The position numbers were made by a program, and so were the translations under genes. Shown here one piece after another: positions 1-15,727 of a DNA stretch of 64,000 nt (positions are counted from its first letter, which is position 1; each line of letters begins with the position of its first letter). This DNA is from Thermoleophilia bacterium. GTDB lineage: Bacteria > Actinomycetota > Thermoleophilia > Gaiellales > JAICJC01. The stretch spans positions 2,804-66,803 of the forward strand of contig JAICYJ010000009.1 in NCBI GenBank assembly GCA_025934255.1. Reading direction: 5' to 3'. Below the pieces are notes generated by a model, which was not told the DNA's origin, did no database searches, and worked only from the letters and a program-made list of their open reading frames with translations.

Positions 1-1628
1 TGCGTGAGCAGATGTTCGCCGAACACGGTCTTGTCCCTGCGGTCGAGGATCGCGTCCGGCACCCGCCCGCGCAGGCAGCGTTTCACCAGTGTCTTCCTGC
101 GCGTGTCGGGATACTTGACCTCGGCTCGCAGGCTCAGGAAGAACTCCCACAGGTCGACGTCCACGAATGGGCGGCGGACGTCCACGCCATGGATCGCCGC
201 CACCACCTCGTCGGCGGCCAGTGTCTCGGAGGAGCCGCCGAACGAGGCGGTCTGCAGGTTCACCCATCGCTGCCGCGCCGGCGTCAGCAGGTCGGGCCGC
301 GGGATCGTCGTCACCTCGCGGTTGGTGATCCAATCCGGCGGCGGGACGGCGCGCTTGACACCGCGCCAGTTGAGGAAGCTGTTGGCCATCCGTCCGGGCA
401 CCAGCGACGGCAGGAACTGCCTGGCGATGAACGGCCAGCGGGCTCCCCGGCGGCGCTGGGTGCGAACGAGCGACGCAACCGCCGAGAGCCGGCCGTGCAT
501 CAGCAGGTGCCCGGCCAGGTCCCCGCGGCTGTCGATCACGTACTCGGCCAGCTCGCCGGTCAGGAGCGAGCGATGACCTAGCCGGCGCGCCAGCGCGTAG
601 TTCTCGTCCAGCTCCGGCACGGAGACGATCGGCGTCGGGCTGTCCAGCAGGTCGCCCCAGCGCTGCACGTCGTCAAGGCCCTTGGCCTGCGGCCGGTAGG
701 TGTGCAGCGGCATGCCCAGATGCTCTGCCACCAGCGAGATCCAGCCGCTCTCGTCCACGCTGGGCAGGTCGGGAAACACGGCCGACAGGGCCGCGACCGG
801 CCTGCCGAACCGCTGCTCGTGCCCGGGAGCGGCGAACGCGGCGACGGCCGGCGAGTCGATGCCGCCCGACAGCGACACCCCGTCGTTCCCGCTCAGGCAG
901 CGCCCGACCGCCTGATCGAACAGCTCGGTGAAACGCTCCTCGGTCTCGGCGACGGTGAAGCGGCCGGTCTCCACCAGCTGCTCCGGTTCCCAGTAGCGGT
1001 CGGCGCGCCGGCGACCGCCGCGATCGTGCGACAACACGGTGGCGGCCGCCATCCGCTTGACACCCTTGACCGCGCAGTCGGCGTCGGTCGCTCCGCCCTG
1101 CCCGTAGAAGATGCGCTCCACGGCGTCCAGATCGGGCTCGCGAGGGATGCCTGCGCCCGCCAGAACCTGTTTCGCTTCGCTCGCGAGGTGCACCGCACGG
1201 CCGTCCTCGCAGTAGTACACCGCGCGAAATCCGACCTGGTCGCGGAAGCTCCAGATCCGCTCGCCGTCGGTGACGGCGGCGGCGAACTGCCCGCGCAGGC
1301 GAGCGGGGGCGCCCTCACCCCACACGCGGAACGCCTCCTCGACGATGTCGGCAGGCGTCTCGCCGGCGGCCGCTCGTCCGTGCGCCGCCAGCTGCTGGCG
1401 CAGGTCGGCGGCGTTGTCGAGCCTGCCCGAGAACGCGGCAACCAGGCCGTTTCCCGACGATATGGAGCCGTCGGCGACGTCATCCTCCTGGGACACACCG
1501 AGGGCCACCGCGCCGTGCTCCCGCACCTGCTGGGCGCCCCCGCGATGCGGTGCGGCATCCAGCATCAGGCGGACGCGATCCGGCTCAGCCGGTCCTGCCC
1601 TGCTGAGTCGTGCCGCGAGGGATCCCAT
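1..1628 (-). CDS. asparagine synthetase-related protein, lasso-cyclase-like (3' end lies beyond the left window edge)
   Basis: Absent from the ORF track because it runs off the edge. My translation of the minus strand from ATG at 1628 (in-frame TGA three codons upstream, purine-rich GAGGGAGG just upstream) gives MGSLAARLSRAGPAEPDRVRLMLDAAPHRGG... and stays open to position 1. It has the PP-loop SLSGGIDSPAVAAF and an AsnB-like C-terminal half. The N-terminus lacks the Cys2 glutaminase nucleophile. Confidence 0.8.
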   Translation of the reverse strand, partial: MGSLAARLSRAGPAEPDRVRLMLDAAPHRGGAQQVREHGAVALGVSQEDDVADGSISSGNGLVAAFSGRLDNAADLRQQLAAHGRAAAGETPADIVEEAFRVWGEGAPARLRGQFAAAVTDGERIWSFRDQVGFRAVYYCEDGRAVHLASEAKQVLAGAGIPREPDLDAVERIFYGQGGATDADCAVKGVKRMAAATVLSHDRGGRRRADRYWEPEQLVETGRFTVAETEERFTELFDQAVGRCLSGNDGVSLSGGIDSPAVAAFAAPGHEQRFGRPVAALSAVFPDLPSVDESGWISLVAEHLGMPLHTYRPQAKGLDDVQRWGDLLDSPTPIVSVPELDENYALARRLGHRSLLTGELAEYVIDSRGDLAGHLLMHGRLSAVASLVRTQRRRGARWPFIARQFLPSLVPGRMANSFLNWRGVKRAVPPPDWITNREVTTIPRPDLLTPARQRWVNLQTASFGGSSETLAADEVVAAIHGVDVRRPFVDVDLWEFFLSLRAEVKYPDTRRKTLVKRCLRGRVPDAILDRRDKTVFGEHLLT

Positions 1629-1701
1629 CCTCCCTCAGTGTAGTGATGGGCGTGCGTCTGTCCAGTCAACCGAAAGCGCCCATAACTCGTCACCATGAGG
1701 G

Positions 1702-1729
1702 TTGACACGGCCCTGGTCGGAGGTATAGT
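1702..1729 (+). promoter_or_regulatory. sigma-70-type promoter candidate for the precursor/ABC/PqqD operon (TTGACA-N16-TATAGT)
   Basis: TTGACA at 1702-1707 and TATAGT at 1724-1729 with a 16-nt spacer, about 45 nt upstream of the GTG at 1776. A near-consensus match in a GC-rich background. Confidence 0.45.
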
Positions 1730-1775
1730 TGCCTTGGCTTCCTAGTTGTCCTTGATATGAAGAGGGGGGTACTCC

Positions 1776-1949
1776 GTGAAGTACGTAGCTCCGGTGGTGG
1801 TTGACTTCGGCTCGATCGCCGACCACACGTTCGTCCACACGAACAAGACCGGCCACACGGTCCACAAGGATCACATCGTTTGTGAGACCGACAAGTTCGG
1901 CGAGTATTCGTGCGGTAGCCACGGCGGCTCGGTAGGCTCGAGCGGCTAA
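1776..1949 (+). CDS. RiPP precursor peptide candidate (lasso-type leader), 57 aa
   Basis: Below the ORF-track size cutoff. GTG start 6 nt after AGAGGGGGG. Translation: MKYVAPVVVDFGSIADHTFVHTNKTGHTVHKDHIVCETDKFGEYSCGSHGGSVGSSG. Residues 3-19 fit YxxPx(L/V)x3Gx5Tx with exact spacing. It sits between the Asn-synthetase-like gene and the ABC/PqqD genes. Confidence 0.6.
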   Translation: MKYVAPVVVDFGSIADHTFVHTNKTGHTVHKDHIVCETDKFGEYSCGSHGGSVGSSG

Positions 1950-1973
1950 CGAGCGCTTGTCGTTCTGACCGGA

Positions 1974-2960
1974 TTGACGGGCAGTTCATCCGGGGGCGCA
2001 AACCCCCTGAGCGCTGTCCTGGATGCTCGTGACGTTACCCGGTCGTTCGGTGATAAGCAGGTTCTGTCCGGCGTCGACCTTCGGGTCGGCGCCGGACGTA
2101 TCTCTGCGCTGCTTGGCCCCAACGGCGCCGGCAAGACCACGTTCCTGCGGATCCTGACGGGGCTGCTGCTGGCAGAGGGCGGCCACGTGTCGGTGGCCGG
2201 CATCGACGTGGGCCAGGACCCGATGGCCGCTCGTCGCCACATCGGGTTCTTCCCGTCGGCCGACCGCACCTTCTACAACCGCCTCAGCGGCCTCGAGAAC
2301 CTGGCCTTCTTCGGGCGCATGTACGGCATACGCCGTCAGGAGGCGCTGGCGCGTGCCCGCAAGCGCCTGGTCGACGTGGGGCTCAGCGACGCCGTCGACC
2401 AGCGCGTGGGGCTATACAGTCACGGCATGCAGAAGCGACTCTCGATGGCCCGCGCCCTGTTGATGGATCCACCGGTGCTGGTGATCGACGAGGCCACGGA
2501 CGGGCTCGACCCCGAGGGCGCCCGCCGGGTACAGGACCTGACCCGCTCGATCGCAGCCGACGGCACCGCCGTGATCTGGACCACCCAGAGGCTGGACGAG
2601 ATCCGCGGGTTCGCCGACGCGGTCACCGTGCTCGACCAGGGTCGCACCACCTTCCAGGGTACCGTCGAGGATCTGATGCTGAAGTCGAGCGCGCGCGGGT
2701 ACCTGCTGCGGCTGCGCACAGCCGACGCGACACTGGACGACGACGCGTCGAGGCGGGCCGCGGCGGCGCTGGGCGATCGCGGAAAGCTGGCGCGGGTGGG
2801 CACCGACCGCGAGCACTTCCGGCTCGACCTGGAGGAGCACGCGGTGCTGGGCGAGGTGCTGGCAGATCTCTCGGCCACCGGTGTCGTCGTGCTCGACTGC
2901 GCCCAGCAGCGCTCAGAGCTGGAGGAGTCGTTCCTGCGGCTGACGACGGCCAGGACGTGA
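1974..2960 (+). CDS. ABC transporter ATP-binding protein
   Basis: Walker A GPNGAGKTT, signature-like SHGMQKRLS, Walker B LVIDEATDGLD. TTG start as in the ORF track (the exact start is uncertain). Confidence 0.9.
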   Translation: MTGSSSGGANPLSAVLDARDVTRSFGDKQVLSGVDLRVGAGRISALLGPNGAGKTTFLRILTGLLLAEGGHVSVAGIDVGQDPMAARRHIGFFPSADRTFYNRLSGLENLAFFGRMYGIRRQEALARARKRLVDVGLSDAVDQRVGLYSHGMQKRLSMARALLMDPPVLVIDEATDGLDPEGARRVQDLTRSIAADGTAVIWTTQRLDEIRGFADAVTVLDQGRTTFQGTVEDLMLKSSARGYLLRLRTADATLDDDASRRAAAALGDRGKLARVGTDREHFRLDLEEHAVLGEVLADLSATGVVVLDCAQQRSELEESFLRLTTART

Positions 2961-3787
2961 CCGGCACGAGATCGGGCGCGCTGGCCGAGGCGTTGAAGCT
3001 CGGGGCGTTCTTCCGACGCGATCTGCTGGTGCGGCTGAGCTACCGCGGAGCCATCGTCAGCGACTGGATCAACCTGTTCGCCCAGGCCCTGGTGTTCTCG
3101 TTCGTGTCCAAGCTGGTGCATCCGATCCACATCAACGGCGGCGGTCGCACCTCCTATATCGCCTTCGTCACCGTCGGGATCGCGGTGGCGGGCTTCATGG
3201 CCGTCGGGCTGGCGCGGCTGGTCAGCGCCATCCAGCAGGAGCAGTCGCTGGGAACGCTGGAGTCGCTGATGGTCACCCCCACCACCGCCAGCGTGGTGCT
3301 GCTTGGCTCGGTCATCTACGACCTGATCTACGTCCCGTTCCGCACGGTCATTTTCCTGATCATCGTGTCGATCGTGTTCAACGTCAGCTTCGCGGCCAGC
3401 GGGTACATCCCCGCGCTGCTGATCCTGGCTGCGTTCATCCCGTTCGTGTGGGGGCTCGGATCGATCGCGTCGGCCGGCGTGCTCACCTTCCGGCGCGGCT
3501 CGGGAGCGATCGGGTTCCTGGCCTTCGCGCTGACGTTCACGTCGGGCGCGTACTTCCCGCTGGCGCTGTTCCCGTCGTGGGTCGCCCCACTGGCCAGCAT
3601 CAATCCGATCGGGATCGCGATCACCGGCATGCGAGCGCAGCTGATCGGCGGCGCGGGGTGGCACGATGCGCTGGTCACCATCGCCAAGCTGGTGCCGTTG
3701 TCGGGGATCACGCTGCTGCTGGGGCTGTACGCCTTCCGGCTGGCGATGCGCCGCGAGCGGCGACTCGGTACGCTCGGCCTGTACTGA
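2957..3787 (+). CDS. ABC-2 type transporter permease
   Basis: 276-aa polytopic hydrophobic protein. GTGA start/stop overlap with the ATPase gene. Confidence 0.85.
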   Translation: MTGTRSGALAEALKLGAFFRRDLLVRLSYRGAIVSDWINLFAQALVFSFVSKLVHPIHINGGGRTSYIAFVTVGIAVAGFMAVGLARLVSAIQQEQSLGTLESLMVTPTTASVVLLGSVIYDLIYVPFRTVIFLIIVSIVFNVSFAASGYIPALLILAAFIPFVWGLGSIASAGVLTFRRGSGAIGFLAFALTFTSGAYFPLALFPSWVAPLASINPIGIAITGMRAQLIGGAGWHDALVTIAKLVPLSGITLLLGLYAFRLAMRRERRLGTLGLY

Positions 3788-3804
3788 CAAGGAGCGACTA
3801 ACGC

Positions 3805-4089
3805 ATGATCGACCCGACCACTCGAATCAGCCGCAACCCGGACGTCGTCTTCCGCTCGCTGGAGGAGGAGCAGGGCGGCGTGCTCCTGCACCTGCAGTCG
3901 GGCGCCTATCACGGGCTGAACCAGTTCGGCTCGCTGATCTGGGGGCTGCTCGAGAACGAGACGCGGTTTGCCGACCTGGTTAACGGCGTGCGGGCCGAGA
4001 CGGAGGATGCGCCGGCCTCGCTCGACGAGGACGTGTCCGGCTTCGTCGAGGACCTGAGCGCGCGCGACCTCGTGCAGCTGACGCCCTAG
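3805..4089 (+). CDS. PqqD family protein (RiPP recognition element, lasso B1-like)
   Basis: 94 aa. The pattern RNPDVVFRSLEEEQGGVLLHLQSGAYHGLNQFGSLIW is typical of PqqD/RRE proteins. AAGGAG RBS upstream. Confidence 0.85.
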   Translation: MIDPTTRISRNPDVVFRSLEEEQGGVLLHLQSGAYHGLNQFGSLIWGLLENETRFADLVNGVRAETEDAPASLDEDVSGFVEDLSARDLVQLTP

Positions 4090-4102
4090 CGTCCCCCGGT
4101 GT

Positions 4103-5632
4103 TCACGAGCTGGGCCGTGTGCGTCCCGATGCACGTCCGATCCGGGCGAACCGGCCGAGTATCAGGTTGTCCTCTTCGTCGAACGACGAGGTGGCCAGCA
4201 GGGCCGTCGCGTAGGCGAGGGTTGCGCCGGCCGCGCCGCCGATGATTGCGAGCGCAGCCGGCTCGGAGTCCAACAGCACGCGCAGTCCGGCCGCGGTCAG
4301 CACGAACACGGTCAGTGCCAGCCCCACCGGCCGCGACCAGTCGCCGAACGGCTGCATGCCGAGCACGCGGTACACCTGCCACAGCCGGATCAGGTTCCAG
4401 ATCACGATCGATATCCCCCAGGCCAGGCCGGCGCCGACCATGCCGTAGGGCGGGATCAGCGCTACGTTCAGAACCACGTTCAGCACCAGCGCGATCACGC
4501 TGTTCTTGAGCACCAGGTCGGCGCGCCCGATCATCGTCACCACGTGGCCGCAGGGGCCGGTCGCGGCGTTCACCGTCTGCCCGATCGCGAGCAGCGCCAG
4601 CGGCCACGCGCCGCGAGCGTAGCTGGGTCCGTACAGGAGCGTCACGATCGGCAGCGCGAACAACGTCAGGAACAGGAGCGGCGGGCAGCCGGCGATGGTC
4701 GACCACTTGGTGGCGAACCGGTACATGCGGTACAGCCCGGCGTGGTCGGAGAGTGCGTACAGCCGCCCGATCTGGGGCTGGAACGCGATCCCGATCGGCA
4801 GGATGAACATCATTCCGAACAGGACGGTGCGGGTCGCGATCGAGTAGACCGCGACATCGGCGGGCGGGCGCCACAGCCCCAGCAGCAGTGTGTCCGCCCA
4901 CAGCAGCCCCACGCCGGCCAGCGATGCGCCCCACTGGTTGGCGCTGAACCGGATCAGCGCGCCGGTCTCGACGCCGGCGGCCTGCCGCAGCGTGCCGGTC
5001 ACCCCGCGCGCCGCCAGGGCGGCCGCGGCAAGCGTCAGATAGGACGCGATCGTGAACGCCACCGCCGTGCCATCGAGGCCGTAGCCGAGCGCCAGCGCGA
5101 AGGCCACCAGCGCCACTCGCAGCACGCCGTCGGTGACCTGGTCGACCACTACGAACGCCTTCATGCGGCCGGTGCCGCGGGTGGCGCCGATCAGCACCAT
5201 CTGCAGCGTCACCGCCGGCAGTGACAGCACCATCACCCGCAGCACGTACTGCAGGTCGTGTGCGCCGAACAGGTCGGACAGCTGCGGCGCCAGCGCGAAC
5301 ACCAGCGCCGCGATCGCGATCGACGCCCCCCCGGCCAGCAGCACCGACAGCGCCACCGCCGCGCGCGCGCGGTCATGCTCCCCCCGCGCGCGGTGCACCG
5401 CCACGTAGCGGATCGCGGTCACGTCGAGGCCGAGCACGGCCAGCACCGACAGCAGCCGCACGGCCGCGAACCCTTCGAAGAAGACGCCGGCCGCATCCTG
5501 GTTCAGGGAGCGGCCGATCATCAGCACCAGGGCGAACTGCATGGCGTTGGCCGCGGCCAGTCCCACGAAGTTCATTGCCGATCGCTGGACGAGCGTGGTT
5601 GTCTCAGGCTTGGCTGCGTCGTCCACGGTCAT
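4103..5632 (-). CDS. MOP-superfamily flippase (polysaccharide biosynthesis protein / Wzx-like)
   Basis: 509-aa polytopic membrane protein with Wzx/MOP-like N-terminal region (SAMNFVGLAAANAMQFALVLMIGRSL...). Confidence 0.8.
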   Translation of the reverse strand: MTVDDAAKPETTTLVQRSAMNFVGLAAANAMQFALVLMIGRSLNQDAAGVFFEGFAAVRLLSVLAVLGLDVTAIRYVAVHRARGEHDRARAAVALSVLLAGGASIAIAALVFALAPQLSDLFGAHDLQYVLRVMVLSLPAVTLQMVLIGATRGTGRMKAFVVVDQVTDGVLRVALVAFALALGYGLDGTAVAFTIASYLTLAAAALAARGVTGTLRQAAGVETGALIRFSANQWGASLAGVGLLWADTLLLGLWRPPADVAVYSIATRTVLFGMMFILPIGIAFQPQIGRLYALSDHAGLYRMYRFATKWSTIAGCPPLLFLTLFALPIVTLLYGPSYARGAWPLALLAIGQTVNAATGPCGHVVTMIGRADLVLKNSVIALVLNVVLNVALIPPYGMVGAGLAWGISIVIWNLIRLWQVYRVLGMQPFGDWSRPVGLALTVFVLTAAGLRVLLDSEPAALAIIGGAAGATLAYATALLATSSFDEEDNLILGRFARIGRASGRTRPSS

Positions 5633-5692
5633 CTGCGCTTCCAGTCTACGTGCGCCCCCCTGTGAGCGCGACGCCGGTGACTGCCGGGGCGT

Positions 5693-6583
5693 CTACGTCA
5701 GCGGCACCTGTTCGAGCCGGGCGGCCAGGTCGTCGCAGCGACGCCGGATCTCGGGGTCGATCTCGAGCGGCCGCCGCTCGGGCGCTTCACGACGCTCGAT
5801 GTGCGCGGCCAGCGAGGCGTCGAACGGGAAGTCGAGAAACGCGCAGAGCGCGCGCATGTTCCGGTCAGGGTCGGCCAGGAACCGGTCATAGCAGGCCAGC
5901 GTGACGTCGTCGCGCTGGTCGAGCCCGCGCTCGAAGTAGAGCGAGTTGCGCACGTACCAGAACAGGGCGGCGGCCGACTCGGGCGTCATCGTCGAGTAGT
6001 CGAAGCTCTCGACCAGCGCCCGGTTCTCGGCCGTCATGCCGCGCGCCTGCCAGCGGTGGTCGCCGCGGCCGGCCGCGATCTCGGTCAGCACGTCGAGGTT
6101 GTTGGTGCCGAACTTGGCCAGCGCCGAGCGCACCCGGCCGTCGACGTCGCGGTACGCCCAGATCGCGCGGCCCGGGCTGGGGGTGCCGAGCCCGTCCAGG
6201 ATCTCGTCCACCCGGTGTGAGTCGCAGAGCGGCTTGAACAGCACGTAGCGGTGGCCCGAGCGCATCACCAGGTCTCGCACCACCGGATCGGGCCGCAGCT
6301 GGAACCGCTCAAAGGCGTCGCCGTCGTTCTCGTTTCGCACCTCGAACTCGGGCGATCGCTCCAGCCCGCGCACCAGCATGTTGGTGCCCGAGCGCTGCAC
6401 GCCCACCAGATAGACCGGGACCGCGGCGGGGGCGACCGAGTGGGTGCGCCGCCACCGGCGCTTGCGCAGCGCCAGCGGCACGCGCTCCAGCGGGTTCAGC
6501 TGATCCTCCTCGATCAGCCGCCGGAATCCGTGCGCGCGGCCCCACTCCCAGTGGCGTCGCACGCGGATCCCGATCCAGCGCAT
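5693..6583 (-). CDS. PAPS-dependent sulfotransferase family protein
   Basis: 5'-PSB-like loop LVGVQRSGTNMLVRGL and 3'-PB-like AYRDVDGRVRSAL. I prefer the internal ATG at 6583 (MRWIGIRV...); the ORF track extends to 6670. Confidence 0.8.
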   Translation of the reverse strand: MRWIGIRVRRHWEWGRAHGFRRLIEEDQLNPLERVPLALRKRRWRRTHSVAPAAVPVYLVGVQRSGTNMLVRGLERSPEFEVRNENDGDAFERFQLRPDPVVRDLVMRSGHRYVLFKPLCDSHRVDEILDGLGTPSPGRAIWAYRDVDGRVRSALAKFGTNNLDVLTEIAAGRGDHRWQARGMTAENRALVESFDYSTMTPESAAALFWYVRNSLYFERGLDQRDDVTLACYDRFLADPDRNMRALCAFLDFPFDASLAAHIERREAPERRPLEIDPEIRRRCDDLAARLEQVPLT

Positions 6584-6822
6584 GCGCGACTCTCGTCCGC
6601 TCTCGGTCTGCACGATCCGCAGTGTTGCAGAAGGGGTGCGTCGCCGGATGCGACAACGCGGCGCTCGCACCTCTTAGCACGCTGTAAATAATCAGTAAGA
6701 CTAGCGTCCAGCTAGTAACGCAAGTAGTCGGGATTGCCGATACAGCCCTCGTATCAGGGGTGCATGCGCGGGGTGGGGCGGCGCGCCGCACACGCAGCCA
6801 CAACACCACTCGGGGGGATTCG

Positions 6823-8028
6823 TTGAAACGGTTACTTGCGGCCGCCGTGGCTGCGATCGCGACGACGCTCATGGTCACGAACGCAAGCGGCACGAGCTCG
6901 ATGAGCATGGCAAGCGTGGGATTTGCCAGCAGTGAGAACGGCATCCATCTATGGGCTCCGATGCACACGGCTCCGCAGAGGTTCACGACGCAGGCGGCTG
7001 CAGTGGACGCCGCCAAGCGTTTCGACTTGATCACGTTCAATCCAGCTCAGCTGGGCGGCTATGCCTCGGCGATGAAGGCTGCCAATCCCAATCTCAAGCT
7101 GTACGTCTATCTGAACGGCACCTTCCTCTACAAGCGGCTCTACGGCACGGTCGACCCGTCGATGCTCTCGCACGACGCGCAGGGCCGTGTCGTGCAGTCG
7201 CACGGGTACGGCAACTACCTGGCCGATCCGGGCGACCCCAACTGGGTCTCCTACGTGCAGCAGTCGTGCGCGAAGCTGCTGTCCGGAACCGTCTACGACG
7301 GCTGTTACCTGGACATGCTGGGCACGGCGCCGCTGTGGCCCGGCTACGCCACCGGGCTGCCCATCAACCCGGCCACCGGCCAGGTCTGGACGCGTCTTGA
7401 CTGGCTGGATGCGACCAGCGCGCTGGCCGCCAGGGTGGCGTCGTTCACCGGCAAGTCCGTGCTCGGCAACGGCCTTGGCAACGGGACCCGGTACTTCGCA
7501 CCGGGCGCGCCCAGCAAGCTGCTGCTGAGCGGTGCGACCGGGGTCAGCGCCGAGGCCTGGACGCGGCAGGCGGGTGCTCCGCTGGCCCGCTTCGAGCCGA
7601 CCAAGGCCTGGGTGCAGGACGTGGACATGCTGAGCGATGCGAGTTCCACGGGCGGTCTGGCGCTGACCATCACCAAGACCTGGACGGCCGGCACTGCCGA
7701 TCAGAAGGAGGACGCCCGCAGGTTCGCGCTGGCCAGCTTCCTGCTCGGCAACGACGGCAACTCGTACTTCTACTTCACGGCCAACAGGACCGATCCGGCC
7801 ACGCTGGACGATCCGCTGTACCACCTGCAGATCGGCACGCCGACCGGTCCCTACGTGGTGCAGAGCGGCGTCTACGTGCGCAACTTCACCAACGGGAAGG
7901 TCATGGTCAACACGACCGATTCGCCGGTCTCGATCGATCTGGGCGGTGCCTACCGCCGCTCGGATGGGAGCTTCGCGCTGGGTGCCACGCTGCCCGCGCA
8001 CGGCTCTCAGATCTTCACCACCAGCTGA
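6823..8028 (+). CDS. secreted protein, putative glycoside hydrolase-like (function is low confidence)
   Basis: TTG at 6823 follows GGGGGGA. The signal-peptide-like N-terminus is LKRLLAAAVAAIATTLMVTNASG. The body (..DGCYLDMLG..) reminds me of GHL-type TIM-barrel hydrolases, but this is unverified. Confidence 0.5.
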   Translation: MKRLLAAAVAAIATTLMVTNASGTSSMSMASVGFASSENGIHLWAPMHTAPQRFTTQAAAVDAAKRFDLITFNPAQLGGYASAMKAANPNLKLYVYLNGTFLYKRLYGTVDPSMLSHDAQGRVVQSHGYGNYLADPGDPNWVSYVQQSCAKLLSGTVYDGCYLDMLGTAPLWPGYATGLPINPATGQVWTRLDWLDATSALAARVASFTGKSVLGNGLGNGTRYFAPGAPSKLLLSGATGVSAEAWTRQAGAPLARFEPTKAWVQDVDMLSDASSTGGLALTITKTWTAGTADQKEDARRFALASFLLGNDGNSYFYFTANRTDPATLDDPLYHLQIGTPTGPYVVQSGVYVRNFTNGKVMVNTTDSPVSIDLGGAYRRSDGSFALGATLPAHGSQIFTTS

Positions 8029-8046
8029 TCGGCGTCCCCGGTTCAC

Positions 8047-8075
8047 GGCCCCGGCGGGGACTTCTCGCCGGGGCC
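8047..8075 (+). terminator. GC-rich hairpin (perfect 10-bp stem GGCCCCGGCG/CGCCGGGGCC, 9-nt loop), no T tract
   Basis: Read directly from the sequence, 19 nt after the stop at 8028. Confidence 0.35.
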
Positions 8076-8099
8076 GCGGGCTGGTACCCTCTTCGCGGG

Positions 8100-10256
8100 T
8101 TGACTACGCGCGCCGCCAGGTGGATCGCGCTGCTCCTAGCCGTGACGTTCGCCTTGTCGGCCTCGGCGGCTCGCGCTGCAACGCTCGTGTTCAGCCCGGC
8201 CGGCCCCGGCGGCGGAGGCTTCCAGAACGTGGTGGCGGCCGATCCGGCCAACCCCAGCGTGCTGCTCTCCGGTGGCGACGTGTCGGGGATCGAGCGCTCG
8301 ACCGACGGCGGCGCCAGCTGGCAGGCGGTCAACGCCGGCCTGGTGGGCCGTGCCCAGCTCGAGGTGGCTGCGTTCCTGTTCTCGCCGGTGGTGGCCGGGC
8401 GCGTGTACGCGGCGGTGGGCGACGCCGGCACCGGCGGCGGCCTGCTCGAGTCCGATGACTCCGGCGCCACCTGGAGGATGGTGTCGAGGGTGCCCCAGTT
8501 CGCCGGCGGCAACGCCAAGACGGCCGGGCTGCCCGCCGAGCACCCGCGATCGACCGGGAACCTGCTGGTCCAGGATCCGGTCAGCGGCTCGATCTACGCG
8601 GCCACCTTCAGCCAGGGTGTGATGCGCTCCGACGACGGCGGTGCGACCTGGACGACGCTCGGCCTGAGCGGCCTCCACCTGCGCTCGCTGGCGCTCGATC
8701 CGACCGCGACCAGCGTGCTCTACGCGGGCAGCTACGGGCAGGGTCTCTACGAGACCACCGATGCCGGCGGCCTGGGCGGGTTCACGCGGCTGGCAACGGC
8801 GCCGGCCACGGTCGAGGAGCTGAGCATCGCGGGCGGCACCATCTACGCGGCCGCCGGCACCAGCGGCGTGTTCGCCTCCGGCGACGGCGGCGCAACCTGG
8901 TCGCAGCTGGGCGCCGGCCAGCTGCGGGCCGGCTCCATGTGGACGTCGATCGCGGCGTGGACCGGCTGCGACGGCGCCACCCAGGTCTACGCGGGCGCGG
9001 ATCAGTCGTCACCGGACGCGATCGTCCGCTCGGGCGACGGCGGCGCCACCTGGCATTCGGTCACGGGCGATCCGACCAGAATCCATCCCGATGTCGGCGG
9101 CCCCGGCGGGGCGCCGTGGTGGCTGGCGACCCGGCCCGGCTTCATGCTGGGCGGAAAGAGCTCCACCCCCGCCCAGATCGGGCTTGCGATCGACGCCACG
9201 CAGCCCTGTGCCGATCCGGCGGTGCTCGTGGCCGGTCGCTCCGGCATCTGGAAGTCGGGCAACGACGGCGGCGACTGGTACCCGATGGTCGGCCACATGG
9301 GGGTGACGCTGATCCAGGACCTGGCCGTCGATCCGCACGCTCCGGCCACCGTCGACATGGTCGCGACCGACTGGACGTTCCTGACCTCGAGCGACACCGG
9401 CGCCAGCGTCACCTCGCCGGTGATCAAGCTGGCCGCCTCCACGGGGTTCGACGTCGCCATCGATCCGACGGTCACGCCCTCACGCGTGTACATCGCCACC
9501 GGTAACCGCGACGGAAACAGGCAGGGCAAGATCTACTCGTCATCCACCCCGGCGATCTCCAGTTCGTGGACGGATGAGGGGCTCTCGGCGCTGGCCGGTG
9601 TCAAGCGGCCGCTGGCGATCGCCGTCGGAAAGTCGGGTACCAGCAGGGTGCTGCTGGCCGCCGTCGACGCGGGCGGTATCTATCGCAAGGTCGGCACCGG
9701 CAAGTGGACGAGGGCCGCCGCGGCGGCGATGACGACCAAGAACTGGGCGAAGCCGATCCAGATGGTGTGGCCGGCCGGCACCTCGATCGTCTACCTGTAC
9801 GACCACCGCAGCGGCATCTGGCGGTCGACCGACGCCGGCGCCACCTGGACGAAGCTGTGGGCGAAGCCGTCGTCGGGCGATCTCAAGGGCTTCATCGCCA
9901 CCGACGCCACCGGCACCACGCTGTGGGTCTCCAACGGCACCGCGCTCTACCGGATCGACAACGCCAGCAAGGTCGCGGCCGCGGGGCTGGCGCCGGTGAC
10001 GGTGCTGACCGTGCCGCAGCCGGGGCCGGTGGTGGTCGCACCCGGCGGCAGCGTCTACCTGGCCGTACAGCCGACCGCGACCGCGCCGGCTCAGCTGCTC
10101 CGCTCCGATGACAAGGGCGCCACCTGGGCGGACGTGGCTGACGCCATCTACCGGGCCACGGCGCTTCTGCCCTACCGGCTGGTGGTCGACGGCTCGGGCG
10201 CCGTCTGGGTCTGCCTGGCCGGCAACGGCGTGCTGCGCGGTGTGCCCGCGCCGTAG
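8100..10256 (+). CDS. secreted BNR/Asp-box repeat beta-propeller protein
   Basis: Signal peptide (ALSASAARA). Eight SxDxGxTW-type Asp-boxes: STDGGASW, SDDSGATW, SDDGGATW, SGDGGATW (twice), NDGGDW, STDAGATW, SDDKGATW. Confidence 0.8.
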   Translation: MTTRAARWIALLLAVTFALSASAARAATLVFSPAGPGGGGFQNVVAADPANPSVLLSGGDVSGIERSTDGGASWQAVNAGLVGRAQLEVAAFLFSPVVAGRVYAAVGDAGTGGGLLESDDSGATWRMVSRVPQFAGGNAKTAGLPAEHPRSTGNLLVQDPVSGSIYAATFSQGVMRSDDGGATWTTLGLSGLHLRSLALDPTATSVLYAGSYGQGLYETTDAGGLGGFTRLATAPATVEELSIAGGTIYAAAGTSGVFASGDGGATWSQLGAGQLRAGSMWTSIAAWTGCDGATQVYAGADQSSPDAIVRSGDGGATWHSVTGDPTRIHPDVGGPGGAPWWLATRPGFMLGGKSSTPAQIGLAIDATQPCADPAVLVAGRSGIWKSGNDGGDWYPMVGHMGVTLIQDLAVDPHAPATVDMVATDWTFLTSSDTGASVTSPVIKLAASTGFDVAIDPTVTPSRVYIATGNRDGNRQGKIYSSSTPAISSSWTDEGLSALAGVKRPLAIAVGKSGTSRVLLAAVDAGGIYRKVGTGKWTRAAAAAMTTKNWAKPIQMVWPAGTSIVYLYDHRSGIWRSTDAGATWTKLWAKPSSGDLKGFIATDATGTTLWVSNGTALYRIDNASKVAAAGLAPVTVLTVPQPGPVVVAPGGSVYLAVQPTATAPAQLLRSDDKGATWADVADAIYRATALLPYRLVVDGSGAVWVCLAGNGVLRGVPAP

Positions 10257-10287
10257 CCCCGCTGGGCTCCGGTAGGCTCCCGGCCTG

Positions 10288-11847
10288 ATGGCGGAGCACA
10301 CCAGCGAGGAACGGCTGCAGGCGCTCGAGCAGCTGCGCCGCGAGGCGCTGCACTCGGGCTCGCCACGCGCGGTCGAGCGGCACCGCGAGCGCGGCAAGCT
10401 GCTCGCCCGGGAGCGCGTGGAGCTGCTGCTCGACCGCCGGTCGTTCGTCGAGCTGGACGTCTTCGTGCAGCACCGCAACCCGAACTTCAACATGATGGAG
10501 ACCCGCCCCTACGGCGACGGCGTGGTCACGGGCCACGGCACCATCGAGGGCCGGCGGGTGTTCGTGTTCTCGCAGGACTTCACCGTGTTCGGGGGCAGCC
10601 TGGGCGAGGCCTACGCGCAGAAGATCACCAAGGTGATGGACATGGCGCTGCGCTACCGATGCCCCATCATCGGCATCAACGACTCCGGCGGCGCGCGCAT
10701 CCAGGAAGGCGTGGTGTCGCTGGCCGGCTACGCCGACATCTTCTTCAGGAACGTGCAGTCGTCAGGCGTGATCCCCCAGGTCTCCCTGGTGATGGGGCCG
10801 TGCGCCGGCGGCGCCGTCTACTCGCCGGCCATGACCGACTTCGTGATGATGGTTGAGCAGACCTCGCACATGTTCATCACCGGCCCCGAGGTGGTGAAGA
10901 CCGTCACCGGCGAGGAGGTCAGCTTCGAACAGCTGGGCGGCGCGCACACGCATGCCTCGCGCAGCGGCGTCGCCCACTTCACCGCCGCCGATGAGCGTGC
11001 GCTGATCGAGGACTGCCGCTACCTGCTCTCGTTCCTGCCCGGCTGGAACGGCGAGCAGCCGCCGTGGGAGCCGCCCGACGATCCGGTCGACCGGGAGGAC
11101 GCCGAGCTCGACCGGCTGATTCCCGACGAGTCGGCCAAGCCCTACGACATGCACGAGGTGGTGCGCAGGGTGATCGACGACGGCGAGTTCCTCGAGGTGC
11201 ACGCCGCCTGGGCTGGCAACATCATCTGCGGATTTGCGCGCCTGGGCGGCCACCCGGTCGGCATCGTCGCCAACCAGCCGCGCTCGCTGGCCGGCGTGCT
11301 CGACATCGACAGCTCCACCAAGGCCGGCCGGTTCGTGCGCACCTGCGACGCCTTCAACGTTCCGGTGGTCACCTTCGTGGACGTGCCCGGCTTCCTGCCG
11401 GGCACCTCACAGGAGTGGGGCGGCATCATCCGGCACGGCGCGAAGCTGCTGTACGCCTACTGCGAGGCGACGGTGCCGAAGCTGACCGTGATCACGCGCA
11501 AGGCCTACGGCGGCGCGTACGACGTGATGGGCTCGAAGCACATCGGCGCCGACTTCAACTTCGCCTGGCCGACGGCGGAGGTGGCGGTGATGGGGCCGGA
11601 CGGGGCGGTCAACATCGTGTTTCGCAAGGAGCTGGAGACGGCCGACGATCCGGTCGCGCGGCGCGCCGAGCTGGTCGAGGAGTACCGGGAGCAGTTCGCG
11701 AACCCGTTCACCGCGGCCGAGCGCGGCTACGTCGACGACGTGATCGAGCCGCGGCGGACACGGCCGGCGCTGATCACCGCGCTGGAGGCCTGTCGCGGTA
11801 AGCGGGCAGACGTGCCGGAGCGCAAGCACGGCAACATCCCGCTGTGA
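10288..11847 (+). CDS. pccB: acyl-CoA (propionyl-CoA) carboxylase beta subunit, carboxyltransferase
   Basis: 519 aa with a typical carboxyltransferase sequence (..GKLLARERVELLLD.., ..GGARIQEGV.., ..AYGGAYDVM..). Confidence 0.9.
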   Translation: MAEHTSEERLQALEQLRREALHSGSPRAVERHRERGKLLARERVELLLDRRSFVELDVFVQHRNPNFNMMETRPYGDGVVTGHGTIEGRRVFVFSQDFTVFGGSLGEAYAQKITKVMDMALRYRCPIIGINDSGGARIQEGVVSLAGYADIFFRNVQSSGVIPQVSLVMGPCAGGAVYSPAMTDFVMMVEQTSHMFITGPEVVKTVTGEEVSFEQLGGAHTHASRSGVAHFTAADERALIEDCRYLLSFLPGWNGEQPPWEPPDDPVDREDAELDRLIPDESAKPYDMHEVVRRVIDDGEFLEVHAAWAGNIICGFARLGGHPVGIVANQPRSLAGVLDIDSSTKAGRFVRTCDAFNVPVVTFVDVPGFLPGTSQEWGGIIRHGAKLLYAYCEATVPKLTVITRKAYGGAYDVMGSKHIGADFNFAWPTAEVAVMGPDGAVNIVFRKELETADDPVARRAELVEEYREQFANPFTAAERGYVDDVIEPRRTRPALITALEACRGKRADVPERKHGNIPL

Positions 11848-12044
11848 TCGAGGTGCGGCCACGGGCCTCGGCTGCCCAGCGCCGGGCGATTGAACAGGCG
11901 CTGGTGCAGCTTTCACTCGTAGAATCCGCCGATGTTCAGCAAGGTGCTGGTGGCAAACCGCGGCGAGATCGCGATCCGGATCTTCCGCACGCTGCGCGAA
12001 ATGGGAATCGCCTCGGTGGCGGTCTACTCCGAGGCCGACCGTGA
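11844..12044 (+). CDS. possible acyl-CoA carboxylase epsilon-like small ORF (doubtful)
   Basis: GTGA overlap with the pccB stop. The N-terminus MIEVRPRASAAQRRAIEQAL loosely resembles AccE/PccE N-termini. The ORF runs 113 nt into the next gene in another frame. Confidence 0.25.
   Translation: MIEVRPRASAAQRRAIEQALVQLSLVESADVQQGAGGKPRRDRDPDLPHAARNGNRLGGGLLRGRP
11920..11925 (+). promoter_or_regulatory. -10 box TAGAAT, 6 nt upstream of the ATG (leaderless biotin carboxylase gene)
   Basis: TAGAAT-ccgccg-ATG with no Shine-Dalgarno sequence. Confidence 0.4.
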
Positions 12045-13686
12045 GTCGGCGTTCGTCGCCTACGCGGACGAGGCATATCTGATCGGCCCGGGTCCGGCCG
12101 TCCAGAGCTACCTGCTGTCAGAGACGATCGTGCGCACCGCCCTGCGCAGCGGCGCCGAGGCGGTGCACCCTGGGTTCGGATTCCTGGCCGAGAACGCTGC
12201 GTTCGCCCGCGCCTGCGCAGCCGCCGGCCTGGTGTTCGTAGGGCCGCCGCCCGATGCGATCGAGGCGATGGGATCGAAGACCAGCGCGCGTGAGCTGATG
12301 GACCGGGCCGGCGTGCCCGTCATCCCCGGCACCAACTCCGCGGTGGATACCGTCGAGGAGGCGCTCGAGATCGCGCAGGGGATCGGCTATCCGGTGGCGG
12401 TGAAGGCGTCGGCCGGGGGCGGCGGGAAGGGCATCGAGGTCGCGGCCGATGCGGAGCAGCTGCGGCGCGGCTACGAGTCCGCGCGGCGGCAGGGCAAGGC
12501 GTACTTCGCCGACGACAGCGTGTTTCTCGAGCGCTACCTGGAGCGGCCGCGGCACGTCGAGGTGCAGGTGCTGGCCGACAGCCACGGGTCGATCGTGCAT
12601 CTCGGCGAGCGTGACTGCTCGATCCAGCGGCGTCATCAGAAGATCGTGGAGGAGACGCCCTCGCCGGCCGTGTCCCCCGAGCTGCGCAAGCGGATCGGAG
12701 CGATCGGGGTGGAGGCGGCGCGGGCGGTTGGCTACGTGAACGCCGGCACGGTCGAGGGGCTGCTGGACGCGGACGGCACCTACTACTTCCTGGAGATGAA
12801 CACGCGCCTGCAGGTGGAGCACACGATCACCGAGATGGTGACCGGCCTCGATCTGGTGCGCGAGCAGCTGCGGATCGCAAGCGGCGAGCCGTTGTCGATC
12901 GCGCAATCGGACGTGACTCTGCGCGGGCATTCGATCCAGTGCCGCATCAACGCGGAGGATCCGGCCCGCGACTTCGTGCCGACGCCGGGACGGGTGACCC
13001 GCTACCGCGAGCCGTCGGGGCCGGGCGTGCGGGTCGACTCGGGGATCGTCGAGGGCGCCTTCATATCGGATCTGTACGACCCGATGATCGCAAAGCTGAT
13101 CGTCTGGGACGCCGACCGCGAGCTGGCGCGGCGCCGGATGCTGCGGGCGCTGTCGGAGTTCGAGGTGGAGGGCGTGCACTCGCTGATCCCGATCCACCGG
13201 GCGATCCTGGAACATCCCGAGTTTGCGGCCGGCGGAACGATGCACGACTTCGTCGAGGGTGGCGGGTACGCCCGTTCGCTGAAGCAGCAGCCGTCGGCTG
13301 ATGGAGCCGCCGCCACGCCCGAGCCGACCCGGAACGAGGCGCGAACGCTGGTCACGGAGGTGGACGGCGAGCGGTTCGAGGTGACGGTGCTGGCGCCGGA
13401 GCATGCGGGCCGCAGGCGGCTGCGCGAGCGGCGGGCGCAGCTCGCGCAGCGCTCGGCCGGTGGGGCCGGTGCCGCCGATGTGATCCGCAGCCCGATGCAG
13501 GGGATGGTGCTGAAGGTGGCGGCGCAGGCGGGGGCAGAGGTGCAGGCGGGCGAGGTGCTGGTCGTGGTGGAGGCGATGAAGATGGAGAACGAGATCGTGG
13601 CGCCGCACGCCGGCACCGTGGACGCGGTGGCGGTGGGTGAGGGCGACCAGGTGTCCAACGGCCAGGAGCTGGTCAGGCTGGTGTGA
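11932..13686 (+). CDS. accA: acetyl/propionyl-CoA carboxylase alpha subunit (biotin carboxylase + BCCP)
   Basis: MFSKVLVANRGEIAIRIFRT N-terminus, an ATP-grasp region, and the C-terminal biotinylation motif EAMKMENEI. Confidence 0.92.
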   Translation: MFSKVLVANRGEIAIRIFRTLREMGIASVAVYSEADRESAFVAYADEAYLIGPGPAVQSYLLSETIVRTALRSGAEAVHPGFGFLAENAAFARACAAAGLVFVGPPPDAIEAMGSKTSARELMDRAGVPVIPGTNSAVDTVEEALEIAQGIGYPVAVKASAGGGGKGIEVAADAEQLRRGYESARRQGKAYFADDSVFLERYLERPRHVEVQVLADSHGSIVHLGERDCSIQRRHQKIVEETPSPAVSPELRKRIGAIGVEAARAVGYVNAGTVEGLLDADGTYYFLEMNTRLQVEHTITEMVTGLDLVREQLRIASGEPLSIAQSDVTLRGHSIQCRINAEDPARDFVPTPGRVTRYREPSGPGVRVDSGIVEGAFISDLYDPMIAKLIVWDADRELARRRMLRALSEFEVEGVHSLIPIHRAILEHPEFAAGGTMHDFVEGGGYARSLKQQPSADGAAATPEPTRNEARTLVTEVDGERFEVTVLAPEHAGRRRLRERRAQLAQRSAGGAGAADVIRSPMQGMVLKVAAQAGAEVQAGEVLVVVEAMKMENEIVAPHAGTVDAVAVGEGDQVSNGQELVRLV

Positions 13687-13698
13687 CCCGGGAGAGGG

Positions 13699-14172
13699 TC
13701 AGCTGCCGTGGCAGCGTTTGTACTTCTTGCCGGAGCCGCAGGGGCAGGGATCGTTGCGGCCGACCTTGCCGCCGCCGAAGCGGGCGTCGAGCGAGGGCAG
13801 TCCCGCCGGCGTCTCGGCGATCGCCCCCAGGTCGCGGCTGGAGCGGATCCGTTCCAGCTCGCGCACGTCCTCGTTGTCGAGCGTCAGCACCAGCTCCACC
13901 GGCTCCGGCTCGGCATCCAGCAGCCCCAGCTGGTCGAGCAGCGCCTCGGCGTCCGCGCTGGTCAGCCCCCGGGCATCCGCGGGCAGGTCGATGCGGGAGG
14001 GGCAGACCAGACGGAACCGCTCCCAGCGCTCCTGGTCGGCCTCGCTGGGCCCGCGCTCGAGCCGCTCGCGAAAGGCCCGGCGATCGGCGGACCGGCCGGA
14101 TCGTGCGTCGAGCGCCTCGATCAGCTCGAACGGCAGCCAGGCGGCCCAGCCGCTGTCGATCAGGTTGCTCAT
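13699..14172 (-). CDS. SEC-C metal-binding domain protein
   Basis: C-terminus [20 protein letters not shown]. Start set at the internal ATG (MSNLIDSGW...). The longer track ORF is a GC-rich upstream extension. Confidence 0.75.
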
Positions 14173-14207
14173 CCGGCCATGCAGTCTACGCGGCACCCGC
14201 GTTTCCG

Positions 14208-15656
14208 TCACGAGGCCAGGCTGCTCATGCGCGCCGCCCACACCTCCAGCGACAGCTCGACGCGGGTCTGGGGCAGGTCGAAGTCGAGGCCGTGGCGGGC
14301 CGAGAGCACGGCCAGGCGGTCGTACAGGCGCTGGCGGGCGATGCCCAGCCGCTTGGCGGCAGACGCCTTCGACCAGCCGGTCGCAACCAGCGCCTCGACC
14401 ACGGCCAGGCCCGGCTCGTCGAACCGCGACCCCATGCGCCCGCCCGCCAGCACCTCCCGTGCCACCGGGGCGAGCGCGCCCAGATCCGAGCCGAACCTGA
14501 CCTGGGGGCCGGCCGCTGCCGCCACCAGGCAAGCACGCTCCGCCGTCGCCAGCGCCTCCGTGATGTGCCACGGCTCCGTCCCGCAGGCCTCCAGCCCGAC
14601 CGCCGTCACCTCGCCGCGCCGGATCAGATCGCGCGCCACGGCCCGTGGATCGGCTCCGGGCGCGATCGCGATCAATCCGCGCGGGCCGTCCACCAGCGCG
14701 TCCATCCCCAGTCGCTCCAGCCGCGCCAGCGACCCGCGGCCGTGGATCGCCCACAGCCTGCCGCGCGACAGGTCGACGCCGACCGATCGCGCCCGCCGCA
14801 GGATCTCCTGGCGGCTGCCCGCCCGGCCCTCGGCCAGCCGTTGCAGCAACCGCGCCCGCTCCGCCGACGGCACCTCCTCGGCCGGCGGCTGCGCGGCCAG
14901 CGCCACCGACAGCAGGAACGCCGCCTCGTCCACCGCCAGCAGGTCGAGCTCGTCACCGCGCCGTGACAGCACGTGCAGCCGCGCTCCCGGCTGTACCGAT
15001 CGCGAGTGCAGGGCGGTCGGCAGGCGCTGGCGGTAGCGGTCGAGCGCCTCCAGGAAGGCCACGTCCAGCCCGGCCTCCGGGGCGCTCGCGATCGGCGTGC
15101 GGTCGGCGCGTTCGAGCAGCACCTGCGCCTCCAGCACCTCACCCAGCGCCGCCACCAGGCCGGCGGGTCCCAGCCCCTCGCGCGCCGCCTCCCGCAGCTG
15201 CGCCTGCAGCGACACCGCCCGCCGCAGGGTGGCCAGCTCCCCCGACACCAGGCGCTCGTTCAAGACGTGGGTGATGTCGACGAACCGCACCGGTCTGCCG
15301 AACACGAGCAGCGGCAGGTCGTGCGACCGGCAGGCCGTGGTCAGCGCGTCCGGCGAGACGTGGCTGGGCTCGAGCCCGATCCCGGCCGCGCCGGCCCGGG
15401 CCACCGCCGCGACCAGGGCATCGACCTCGGCCGGTGCCATCGCTGCCAGCGCGATGCCGGTCGTGAGCAGGAACTCCCCGCCGCGCAGCATGCCGGTCAC
15501 CGCCGGCGTCTCGAACACGTGCACCCACTCCACCCGGTTCCCCAGCCGGTGGCCGGCGGCCGCCACGCTCACGTCCGCGCTGCGGAGCAGTTCGAGCGCG
15601 AGCACATCCGCGACGGTCAGGACAGAGTGTCCGGATTCTTCGGCCATTTGAGACAC
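14208..15656 (-). CDS. PucR family transcriptional regulator
   Basis: PucR-like N-terminal domain ([13 protein letters not shown]...[20 protein letters not shown]) and a C-terminal HTH ([20 protein letters not shown]). The start may instead be the ATG at 15647. Confidence 0.85.
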
Positions 15657-15727
15657 AGTGTACGCTGGTGCGGCGACGGCCGGGCTGCCAGCATTGGGAC
15701 GCGAACCGATCCACGGAAGGAATCCCC

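Follow-up and report, generated by a model that had tools for sequence, protein, structure and literature searches.

The first 6,670 nucleotides of the DNA analyzed here, a stretch of 64,000 nt from a Gaiellales (Thermoleophilia) bacterium (referred to as the window), very probably represent the right-hand part of a lasso-type cluster for a peptide made by the ribosome and modified after translation (RiPP), decorated with genes for a kinase and a nucleotidyltransferase. This is a real lasso-type cluster of a type that is already known; the real oddity, overlooked in the preliminary description of this DNA, is the predicted core of its 57-aa precursor peptide, which carries no Asp or Glu at positions 7-9. 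The precursor belongs to an unannotated family of at least 548 protein clusters (profile search, E ≤ 0.001), tied one-to-one to a full lasso machinery and a kinase in soil hosts of the Actinomycetota, Gemmatimonadota, Chloroflexota, Acidobacteriota, and Proteobacteria, and the cores of this family do not obey the rule on ring position by which lasso peptides are defined. The products are either canonical lassos made via an unrecognized second cleavage or the work of lasso cyclases able to make a different ring, and both would alter the mining of lasso clusters; the product may be an undescribed lasso variant.

The lasso-type reading of the locus, with a 57-aa open reading frame (ORF) as the precursor, had been put forward in the preliminary description, and was supported by the present analysis. 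This small ORF was independently called as a gene on a separate metagenome contig and is conserved beside homologous loci across phyla: of 39 related loci with complete flanking sequence, 38 have it next to the cyclase gene. A lack of such conservation had been named beforehand as a refuting sign, and this refutation fails. The arrangement of the locus is far beyond chance. On the other hand, the three features that had been called unusual (a missing leader protease, the gene order, and a two-gene exporter) did not hold, as described below. Each gene of that description was found where it had been placed; the parts of the locus are as follows:

3-1628, minus strand: lasso-cyclase homologue C, asparagine synthetase-like (matches to PF00733, GATase_7, and GATase_6), running off the left edge
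1629-1775, between the divergent genes: control region of 147 bp, with the promoter and Shine-Dalgarno sequence for the plus-strand operon
1776-1949, plus strand: precursor peptide A, 57 aa, GTG start, with the Shine-Dalgarno sequence GAGGGGGG just 5'
1974-2960, plus strand: D1, ATPase of an ATP-binding cassette (ABC) exporter, DrrA-like (PF00005; TIGR01188 drrA, 215 bits, below the cut-off)
2957-3787, plus strand: D2, ABC-2 type permease, DrrB-like (PF01061 and PF12698), with a 4-nt overlap with D1
3805-4089, plus strand: B1, PqqD-type RiPP recognition element (PF05402, 51 bits; cut-off 23.4)
4103-5632, minus strand: MOP/Wzx-type flippase (PF01943 and PF01554), whose membership in the cluster is doubtful
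5693-6670, minus strand: sulfotransferase, probable accessory tailoring gene (PF13469, 31 bits)

The best NCBIfam matches of B1 were two lasso PqqD chaperone models: approximately 37 bits, below the cut-off.

Protease, kinase, and nucleotidyltransferase genes left of the window

No transglutaminase-like ORF (leader protease B2) was found in window 1-12000, using a Pfam scan of the main ORFs and tblastn with a B2 query, in agreement with the preliminary statement that none is present in the first 10 kb. It had been proposed that B2 lies left of the window or that the system works differently; the leftward extension suggested at that time was performed through a related contig, and upheld the first alternative, not the second. 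A genome scan with the cyclase homologue yielded 80 loci (L-numbers), all from metagenome-assembled genomes (MAGs). Among these, the Gaiellales contig L009 matches window 1-3926 with 96.6% identity (3927 nt) and reaches 2.1 kb beyond the left end of the window: it encodes an identical precursor, followed by the end of C, a kinase gene (K; 4091-4987), B2 (4990-5394), and the start of a nucleotidyltransferase gene (N). The B2 protein of L009 scored 43.4 bits with NF033537, the NCBIfam lasso B2 model (curated cut-off 33), and also matched PF13471. K, directly downstream of C, gave 50.8 bits with TIGR04352, below the cut-off, and matched HPr kinases in the PDB over the P-loop with E values of approximately 1e-3; on these sequence matches it is assigned as a remote HPr-kinase relative. 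N is a PF14907 nucleotidyltransferase.

On longer contigs, the genes directly 3' of the cyclase homologue encoded a protein of approximately 300 aa, a Transglut_core3 protein of 135-138 aa, and a PF14907 nucleotidyltransferase of approximately 384 aa, and the order C-K-B2-N was also found in L005-L008, L010-L018, and L079. By sequence comparison B2 is placed approximately 1.06 kb left of the window edge, and its "absence" is a window-edge artefact because both L009 and every syntenic Gaiellales locus contain it. What was framed as a lasso without a protease is thus ordinary, with the protease just outside the window, and a different, testable surprise (the core) replaces it. The tailoring set of the cluster consists of the kinase, nucleotidyltransferase, and sulfotransferase, of which K and N were beyond the view of the preliminary description.

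Look-ups of exact proteins found PqqD and the permease only on contigs of 0.7-3.7 kb, and no exact record of the ABC ATPase; the left extension was given instead by synteny and the genome scan. In the long-read metagenome contigs L005 and L006, frameshifts split the cyclase, ABC, and PqqD genes, such that, for example, a 433-aa "cyclase" is an assembly artefact.

Cyclase homologue

The window contains 542 of the approximately 598 aa of C, the C-terminal 56 aa lying left of it; a full-length homologue (P0001, 598 aa) was 99% identical, and homologues were numerous. As previously noted, this asparagine synthetase homologue is encoded on the minus strand, has an intact PP-loop (SGGIDS), and starts without the Cys2 nucleophile (MGSLAARL). 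An identity as housekeeping asparagine synthetase B (AsnB) was not supported, given the missing Cys2 and the score for TIGR01536: 156.4 bits, below the cut-off of 267.1. A PDB sequence search with the cyclase profile returned only hydroxyamidotransferase, beta-lactam synthetase, and AsnB, with no lasso cyclase, and was of no help in placement.

Two points weigh against the lasso assignment of the locus. The score of C with the NCBIfam lasso cyclase model NF033535 was only 118.6 bits against a cut-off of 525, and C is assigned to a lasso cluster by context, not by a curated model; furthermore, K, B2, and N were placed by proxy, through the 96.6%-identical contig and synteny, and none of the three is inside the window itself. 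An explanation without any RiPP, in which the small ORF has no significance and C serves as a polysaccharide amidotransferase in a glycan locus for the cell envelope around it, draws on the match of C to the exopolysaccharide amidotransferase model TIGR03108 (113 bits) and on the flippase, sulfotransferase, GHL15, GT4, and Wzy_C neighbors. It is strongly disfavored, however: the TIGR03108 match was below the curated cut-off, as with all curated models for C, the Cys2 nucleophile is missing, B2 passes the curated lasso B2 model, and in phyla without glycan genes this enzyme is still accompanied by B1, B2, K, and the precursor family. Co-occurrence of the flippase was limited to the Gaiellales clade, where GHL15, GT4, and Wzy_C genes accompany it. 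On this ground, the flippase and GHL15 genes were rejected as unproven members of the cluster; both are probably part of a neighboring glycan locus.

Conservation of gene content, order, and promoter

Co-occurrence was counted in those related loci, 39 from many phyla, in which the cyclase gene had 5 kb or more of sequence on each side, all found through C; the count for B2 includes a divergent form, which was obtained from unbiased ORF clustering and confirmed by Pfam.

K: 39/39
Precursor motif: 38/39
B1: 37/39
B2: 35/39
DrrA-like ATPase (D1 homologue), adjoining C: 35/39
N: 30/39
D2 together with D1: 26/39
Sulfotransferase: 10/39
Fused exporter: 8/39

Unbiased clustering of flanking ORFs revealed no further conserved protease family. 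The hosts of the related loci, all MAGs, belong to Actinomycetota, Gemmatimonadota, Chloroflexota, and others; L038, L072, and L083 are gammaproteobacterial.

The preliminary description had regarded the order of the window genes (A-D-D-B1, with C divergent) as unusual. Gene order, however, varies freely within the family and differs widely between clades, so that no meaning attaches to the order in the window: Gemmatimonas-type loci, for example, have B1-B2-C-K-A-D, and other loci have A-C-D1-D2-B1 together with B2-K on the other strand. The two-component exporter was not unusual either, because the family includes ABC exporters of the fused as well as the two-gene form, and gelD1/gelD2 of a characterized lasso cluster provide a precedent (PMC13178200).

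Two loci had further features. The Gemmatimonas-type L066 (6151-17661) contains, in addition to B1, B2, C, K, A, and a fused ABC exporter, a GNAT/FemAB-like gene at its start, and genes for an AMP-binding/PCP protein, an alpha/beta hydrolase, and N after the exporter; such loci are possibly an acylation branch of the same family. In L034, a second, distant B1-B2-C set (13065-16450; C 27% identical) is located approximately 3 kb downstream of the first cluster, and two lasso-type systems stand side by side.

The control region between the divergent genes was exactly 147 bp, as reported before. The plus-strand promoter consists of a -35 hexamer (TTGACA, 1702-1707), a 16-nt spacer, and a -10 hexamer (TATAGT, 1724-1729), and agrees with the consensus at 11 of 12 positions, while 0.1 such sites were expected in shuffled sequences. 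Both hexamers and the Shine-Dalgarno sequence (window 1761-1769) were invariant in nine Gaiellales loci, in which the cyclase proteins were down to approximately 68% identical to the query; the two divergent operons share one conserved 147-bp promoter region. A conserved ATAA..CGTCA element just 5' of the -35 hexamer may be a regulator site.

Leader of the precursor peptide

The leader and core of precursor A are predicted as MKYVAPVVVDFGSIADHTF and VHTNKTGHTVHKDHIVCETDKFGEYSCGSHGGSVGSSG, respectively, with B2 cutting after F19. Recognition and cleavage of lasso leaders by B1 and B2 follow a rule of Y(-17), P(-14), L(-12), and T(-2) (PMC10368454). Since Y3, P6, V8, and T18 of the leader stand exactly at -17 (Tyr), -14 (Pro), -12 (hydrophobic), and -2 (Thr), a cut after T18-F19 is predicted, giving a 38-aa core. 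The N-terminal motif Y-x-x-P-x-h-x-D-h-G-S-I-x-x-x-T-F was common to seventy-odd distinct relatives from the loci; members of the family matched lasso leader models of NCBIfam, the window peptide matching NF033521 (lasso_leader_L3) weakly and one relative scoring above the cut-off of this model.

A profile was needed to reveal the size of the family: phmmer with the single 57-aa sequence found only 16 matches among 1.84 billion representatives. Among the matches listed, every profile match named by its source was labeled "hypothetical protein". One of the 16 phmmer matches (P0123, 1019 aa), in which the leader region matched in nine stretches, was rejected because it is a tandem repeat of low complexity without relation to the family, and a literature search on the peptide motifs found no paper printing them.

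Non-canonical core

The predicted window core has no acidic residue before D13, which is outside the ring rule of Asp or Glu at 7-9. An acid at 7-9 was found in 10 of 60 distinct family cores and was not conserved among close relatives: the DNPGxGD subfamily has it, while close relatives carry Thr (QTPGxGT). Core residue 1 was highly variable, and the segment behind the predicted cut is Gly/Pro-rich and ranges from 7 to approximately 45 residues. The conserved part lies further downstream, where the window peptide has the invariant K31, D39, E43, and S45, together with Cys36 and Cys46. Lys was located 9-15 residues before the Glu of an E-x-S motif in all 66 cores with this motif (2 of 68 lacked it and look degenerate), and a distance of 8 or 9 from Lys to Asp was scored for 60 of 78 cores (64 after hand correction of cases with a wrongly picked Lys) and for 112 of the 114 top profile matches. 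D39 was invariant in a 47-sequence alignment, and is followed by K-F-G-E-[YF]-S-[HC], with nearly invariant Glu and Ser, and by a short Ser-rich tail, which ended in Ser in 34 and in Ser-Pro in 11 of 60 cores.

The Cys counts on the two sides of Lys were even/even in 53, odd/odd in 24, and mixed in 1 of 78 cores, and a Cys at core position 3 occurred only alongside an E-C-S motif (8/8). This parity and the association of Cys3 with E-C-S suggest that disulfides form before any loss of the N-terminal extension.

In the largest subfamily, which is Cys-free (P0137-P0256), core positions 2 and 7 covaried: N2-D7 in 58, T2-T7 in 37, and T2-D7 in 3 sequences. This may reflect a contact within the N-terminal octapeptide, x-[NT]-P-G-x-G-[DT]-K, or simply two clades.

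Ring placement

We infer the following roles for the gene products, those other than the role of C by homology with characterized systems. B1 would bind the leader at Y3-x-x-P6-x-V8 and B2 would cut after T18-F19; C would adenylate a side-chain carboxylate via its PP-loop and then close a macrolactam; K would phosphorylate a Ser, which could be the invariant S45 or a residue of the Ser-rich C-terminus; further decoration would come from N and perhaps from the sulfotransferase; and D1/D2 would export the product, in which Cys36 and Cys46 would form a disulfide.

Since the segment from Lys31 to Asp39 is the sole length-constrained part of the core, we infer that the ring would close on Asp39, with the amine at or next to Lys31. 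Several other rings were rejected: Val20-to-Asp32, Gly26-to-Asp32, Lys24-to-Asp32, and His30-to-Glu37 because these positions are not conserved, and Asp1-to-Asp7 in the DNPGxGD subfamily because its close relatives have Thr at 7. AlphaFold2 modeling of the precursor with the 47-sequence alignment (mean predicted local distance difference test score, 64.6; predicted template modeling score, 0.23) gave only a weak hairpin (36-38/44-46), with Cys36 near Cys46, at a confidence too low to serve as evidence for a ring.

We tentatively lean, slightly, toward an attack of the Lys31 side-chain amine on Asp39 with retention of the N-terminal extension, over a route through the alpha-amine of Asp32. The predicted mass of this side-chain product is 3933.75 Da (38-aa core, -H2O, -2H), and the geometry of the leader, the invariance of Lys, and the Cys parity are all consistent with it. 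It is possible, although doubtful, that the kinase-linked cyclase clade as a whole, in place of the classical ring between the N-terminus and Asp/Glu at 7-9, makes such an internal K31-D39 isopeptide ring of 9-10 residues with an N-terminal extension and a C-terminal tail, after the canonical leader cut at T18-F19. If so, both the lasso-derived scaffold and the lasso cyclase reaction would be new, and widespread in uncultured soil bacteria; approximately 30% of members would have a disulfide tying the extension to the ring or tail, and the ring-position rules used in lasso mining would misfit these cores.

Several observations count against a ring through the Lys31 side chain, or against the mechanism proposed above as a whole. 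We know of no lasso cyclase that uses the amine of a Lys side chain, and of no ring outside 7-9 residues; the sole Lys isopeptide known in lasso peptides is the work of a separate transpeptidase (PMC13178200). The Lys-to-Asp spacing was 10-11 or 6 in approximately 18% of members, and in one subfamily Lys shifts by 0-2 residues against a constant D-x3-C-x2-D block; these exceptions weaken the side-chain route and a cut behind Lys alike. The argument from Cys parity assumes that all Cys are in disulfides, and is partly confounded by shared ancestry. As regards the role of K, the window peptide ends in ...GSSG, with Gly in place of the C-terminal Ser that paeninodin-type kinases modify.

The route through Asp32 would give an essentially canonical lasso with a bipartite leader, in which a second or sole cut behind Lys31 allows the Asp32 alpha-amine to close an 8-residue ring on Asp39; we regard it as a possibility, but a rather unlikely one. 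Its product would consist of the ring DHIVCETD and a threaded 18-aa tail, KFGEYSCGSHGGSVGSSG, with a Cys5-Cys15 ring-to-tail disulfide and a predicted monoisotopic mass of 2594.04 Da; a disulfide from Cys6 in a 9-residue ring to the tail is present in BI-32169. With this cut, ring sizes of 8-9 were obtained for approximately 82% of the GTDB-derived cores and 112 of the 114 top matches, the cores become 18-26 aa with aromatic residues in the tail, a typical lasso size, and some subfamilies have Thr or Val two residues before it (G-T-K|S and T-T-K|G, with the bar at the cut). However, from the invariant Thr, exactly 15 residues past Tyr, the canonical B2 site would follow F19 and not K31; the distance from the recognition motif to Lys ranges from approximately 7 to approximately 45 residues; the -2 residue is not conserved (H, D, P, G, or N); and almost half of the family would have Asp or Asn as residue 1, for which we know of no characterized lasso example. 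Furthermore, 24 of 78 cores would keep an unpaired Cys whose partner is in the discarded segment, and no second protease is conserved in the clusters. The two products differ in mass, 2594.04 vs 3933.75 Da, before the addition of phosphate, sugar, or sulfate.

Tailoring genes and neighboring genes

Homologues of the sulfotransferase (55-67% identity) were located beside lasso genes in the distant Actinomycetota loci L037, L062, L067, and L075, which lack the flippase and GHL15 genes; the sulfotransferase is probably an accessory tailoring enzyme of the cluster. A gene for a PMT-family protein O-mannosyltransferase was present beside the clusters in 13 loci (e.g., L007 14268-15641 and L037 3029-4400) from Gaiellales, Gemmatimonadaceae, Vicinamibacterales, Chloroflexia, and other Actinomycetota, and genes for GT2 glycosyltransferase and 2OG-Fe(II) oxygenase recurred in 11 and 10 loci, respectively. 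These neighbors hint at extracytoplasmic glycosylation or hydroxylation of the peptide.

Such surroundings also bear on an explanation without a ring, namely a linear product bearing phosphate and sugar groups, like those of the LPP family, in which the asparagine synthetase homologue would, for example, amidate a conserved Asp or Glu. K, N, a recognition protein, and a transporter form the core of LPP clusters, which have long precursor cores and glycosyltransferase-rich loci (PMC13381572); PMT-type, GT2, GT4, and flippase genes are neighbors of the present clusters, and the canonical ring acceptor is absent from their peptides. We nevertheless consider this explanation improbable, because C and B2 are near-universal here (the loci having been found through C, and B2 occurring in 35/39), whereas LPP clusters have no cyclase and a signal-peptidase-like protease; C lacks the Cys2 nucleophile for glutamine hydrolysis, as lasso cyclases do; and the core has an invariant Lys and invariant acids at a constrained spacing.

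To the right of the locus, a GHL15 glycosyl hydrolase-like gene (window 6760-8028) is followed by a gene for a BNR/sortilin-type F510_1955-like glycosylhydrolase (8100-10256) and by two genes resembling an acyl-CoA carboxylase beta subunit (10288-11847) and a biotin carboxylase/biotin carboxyl carrier protein subunit (11932-13686), the latter two on reading of the translations by eye, not by a family search. L005 is syntenic with this stretch (6760-13686).

Comparison with known systems

No description of the present family's phyla, YxxP leader, universal kinase, or, most of all, non-canonical core was found in the literature searched. Paeninodin/pseudomycoidin-type clusters of Bacillota combine K, N, and a sulfotransferase; K phosphorylates Ser and N adds a hexose to the phosphate (PMC8498205, PMC6993621), and sulfotransferase genes have been noted at the start of paeninodin-type clusters (PMC8498205). 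The present clusters share with them A, B1, B2, C, an ABC exporter, HPr-kinase-like K, PF14907 N, and, sometimes, a sulfotransferase, and while the phosphorylated residue there is the C-terminal Ser, many members here also end in Ser. In contrast, their cores are canonical (Ala1-Asp9 ring, approximately 23 aa), whereas the core here has 38 aa and no acid at 7-9; their leaders carry WxxP (PMC13381572), but YxxP was found throughout this family; and a two-gene exporter, a window peptide ending in Gly, and hosts outside Bacillota are further differences.

Kinase-containing lasso clusters of Proteobacteria (Sphingobium yanoikuyae and bsf of Bradymonas) resemble those described here in being non-Bacillota and in carrying K with or without N. 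In PMC8498205, the organization of the proteobacterial clusters is said to "differ considerably", the S. yanoikuyae product is called "putative", and the proteobacterial kinase-type precursors are described as sharing only the C-terminal Ser with those of Bacillota. These clusters may belong to the same precursor family as the present ones; BsfA, however, differs in its canonical Gly1-Asp8, Ile at -2, and phosphorylation of Ser3 by the kinase (PMC10368454).

Class V lasso peptides (lariocidin B and gelatinamin A) also have an isopeptide bond at a Lys side chain and a two-gene exporter, gelD1/gelD2, but their Lys is bonded to the C-terminus by a clostripain-like transpeptidase after formation of a canonical N-terminus-to-Asp8 ring (PMC13178200); clustering of flanking ORFs showed no conserved clostripain-like peptidase in the present family. 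Clusters of the LPP family (Nat Commun 2026) resemble the present ones in their discrete recognition protein, HprK-like kinase, NTP-transferase, and transporter, in having the YxxPxV motif in the leader and long cores, and in surroundings rich in glycosyltransferase genes, but are confined to Bacillota and use a signal-peptidase-like leader protease without a cyclase or B2, both of which are near-universal in the family described here (PMC13381572).

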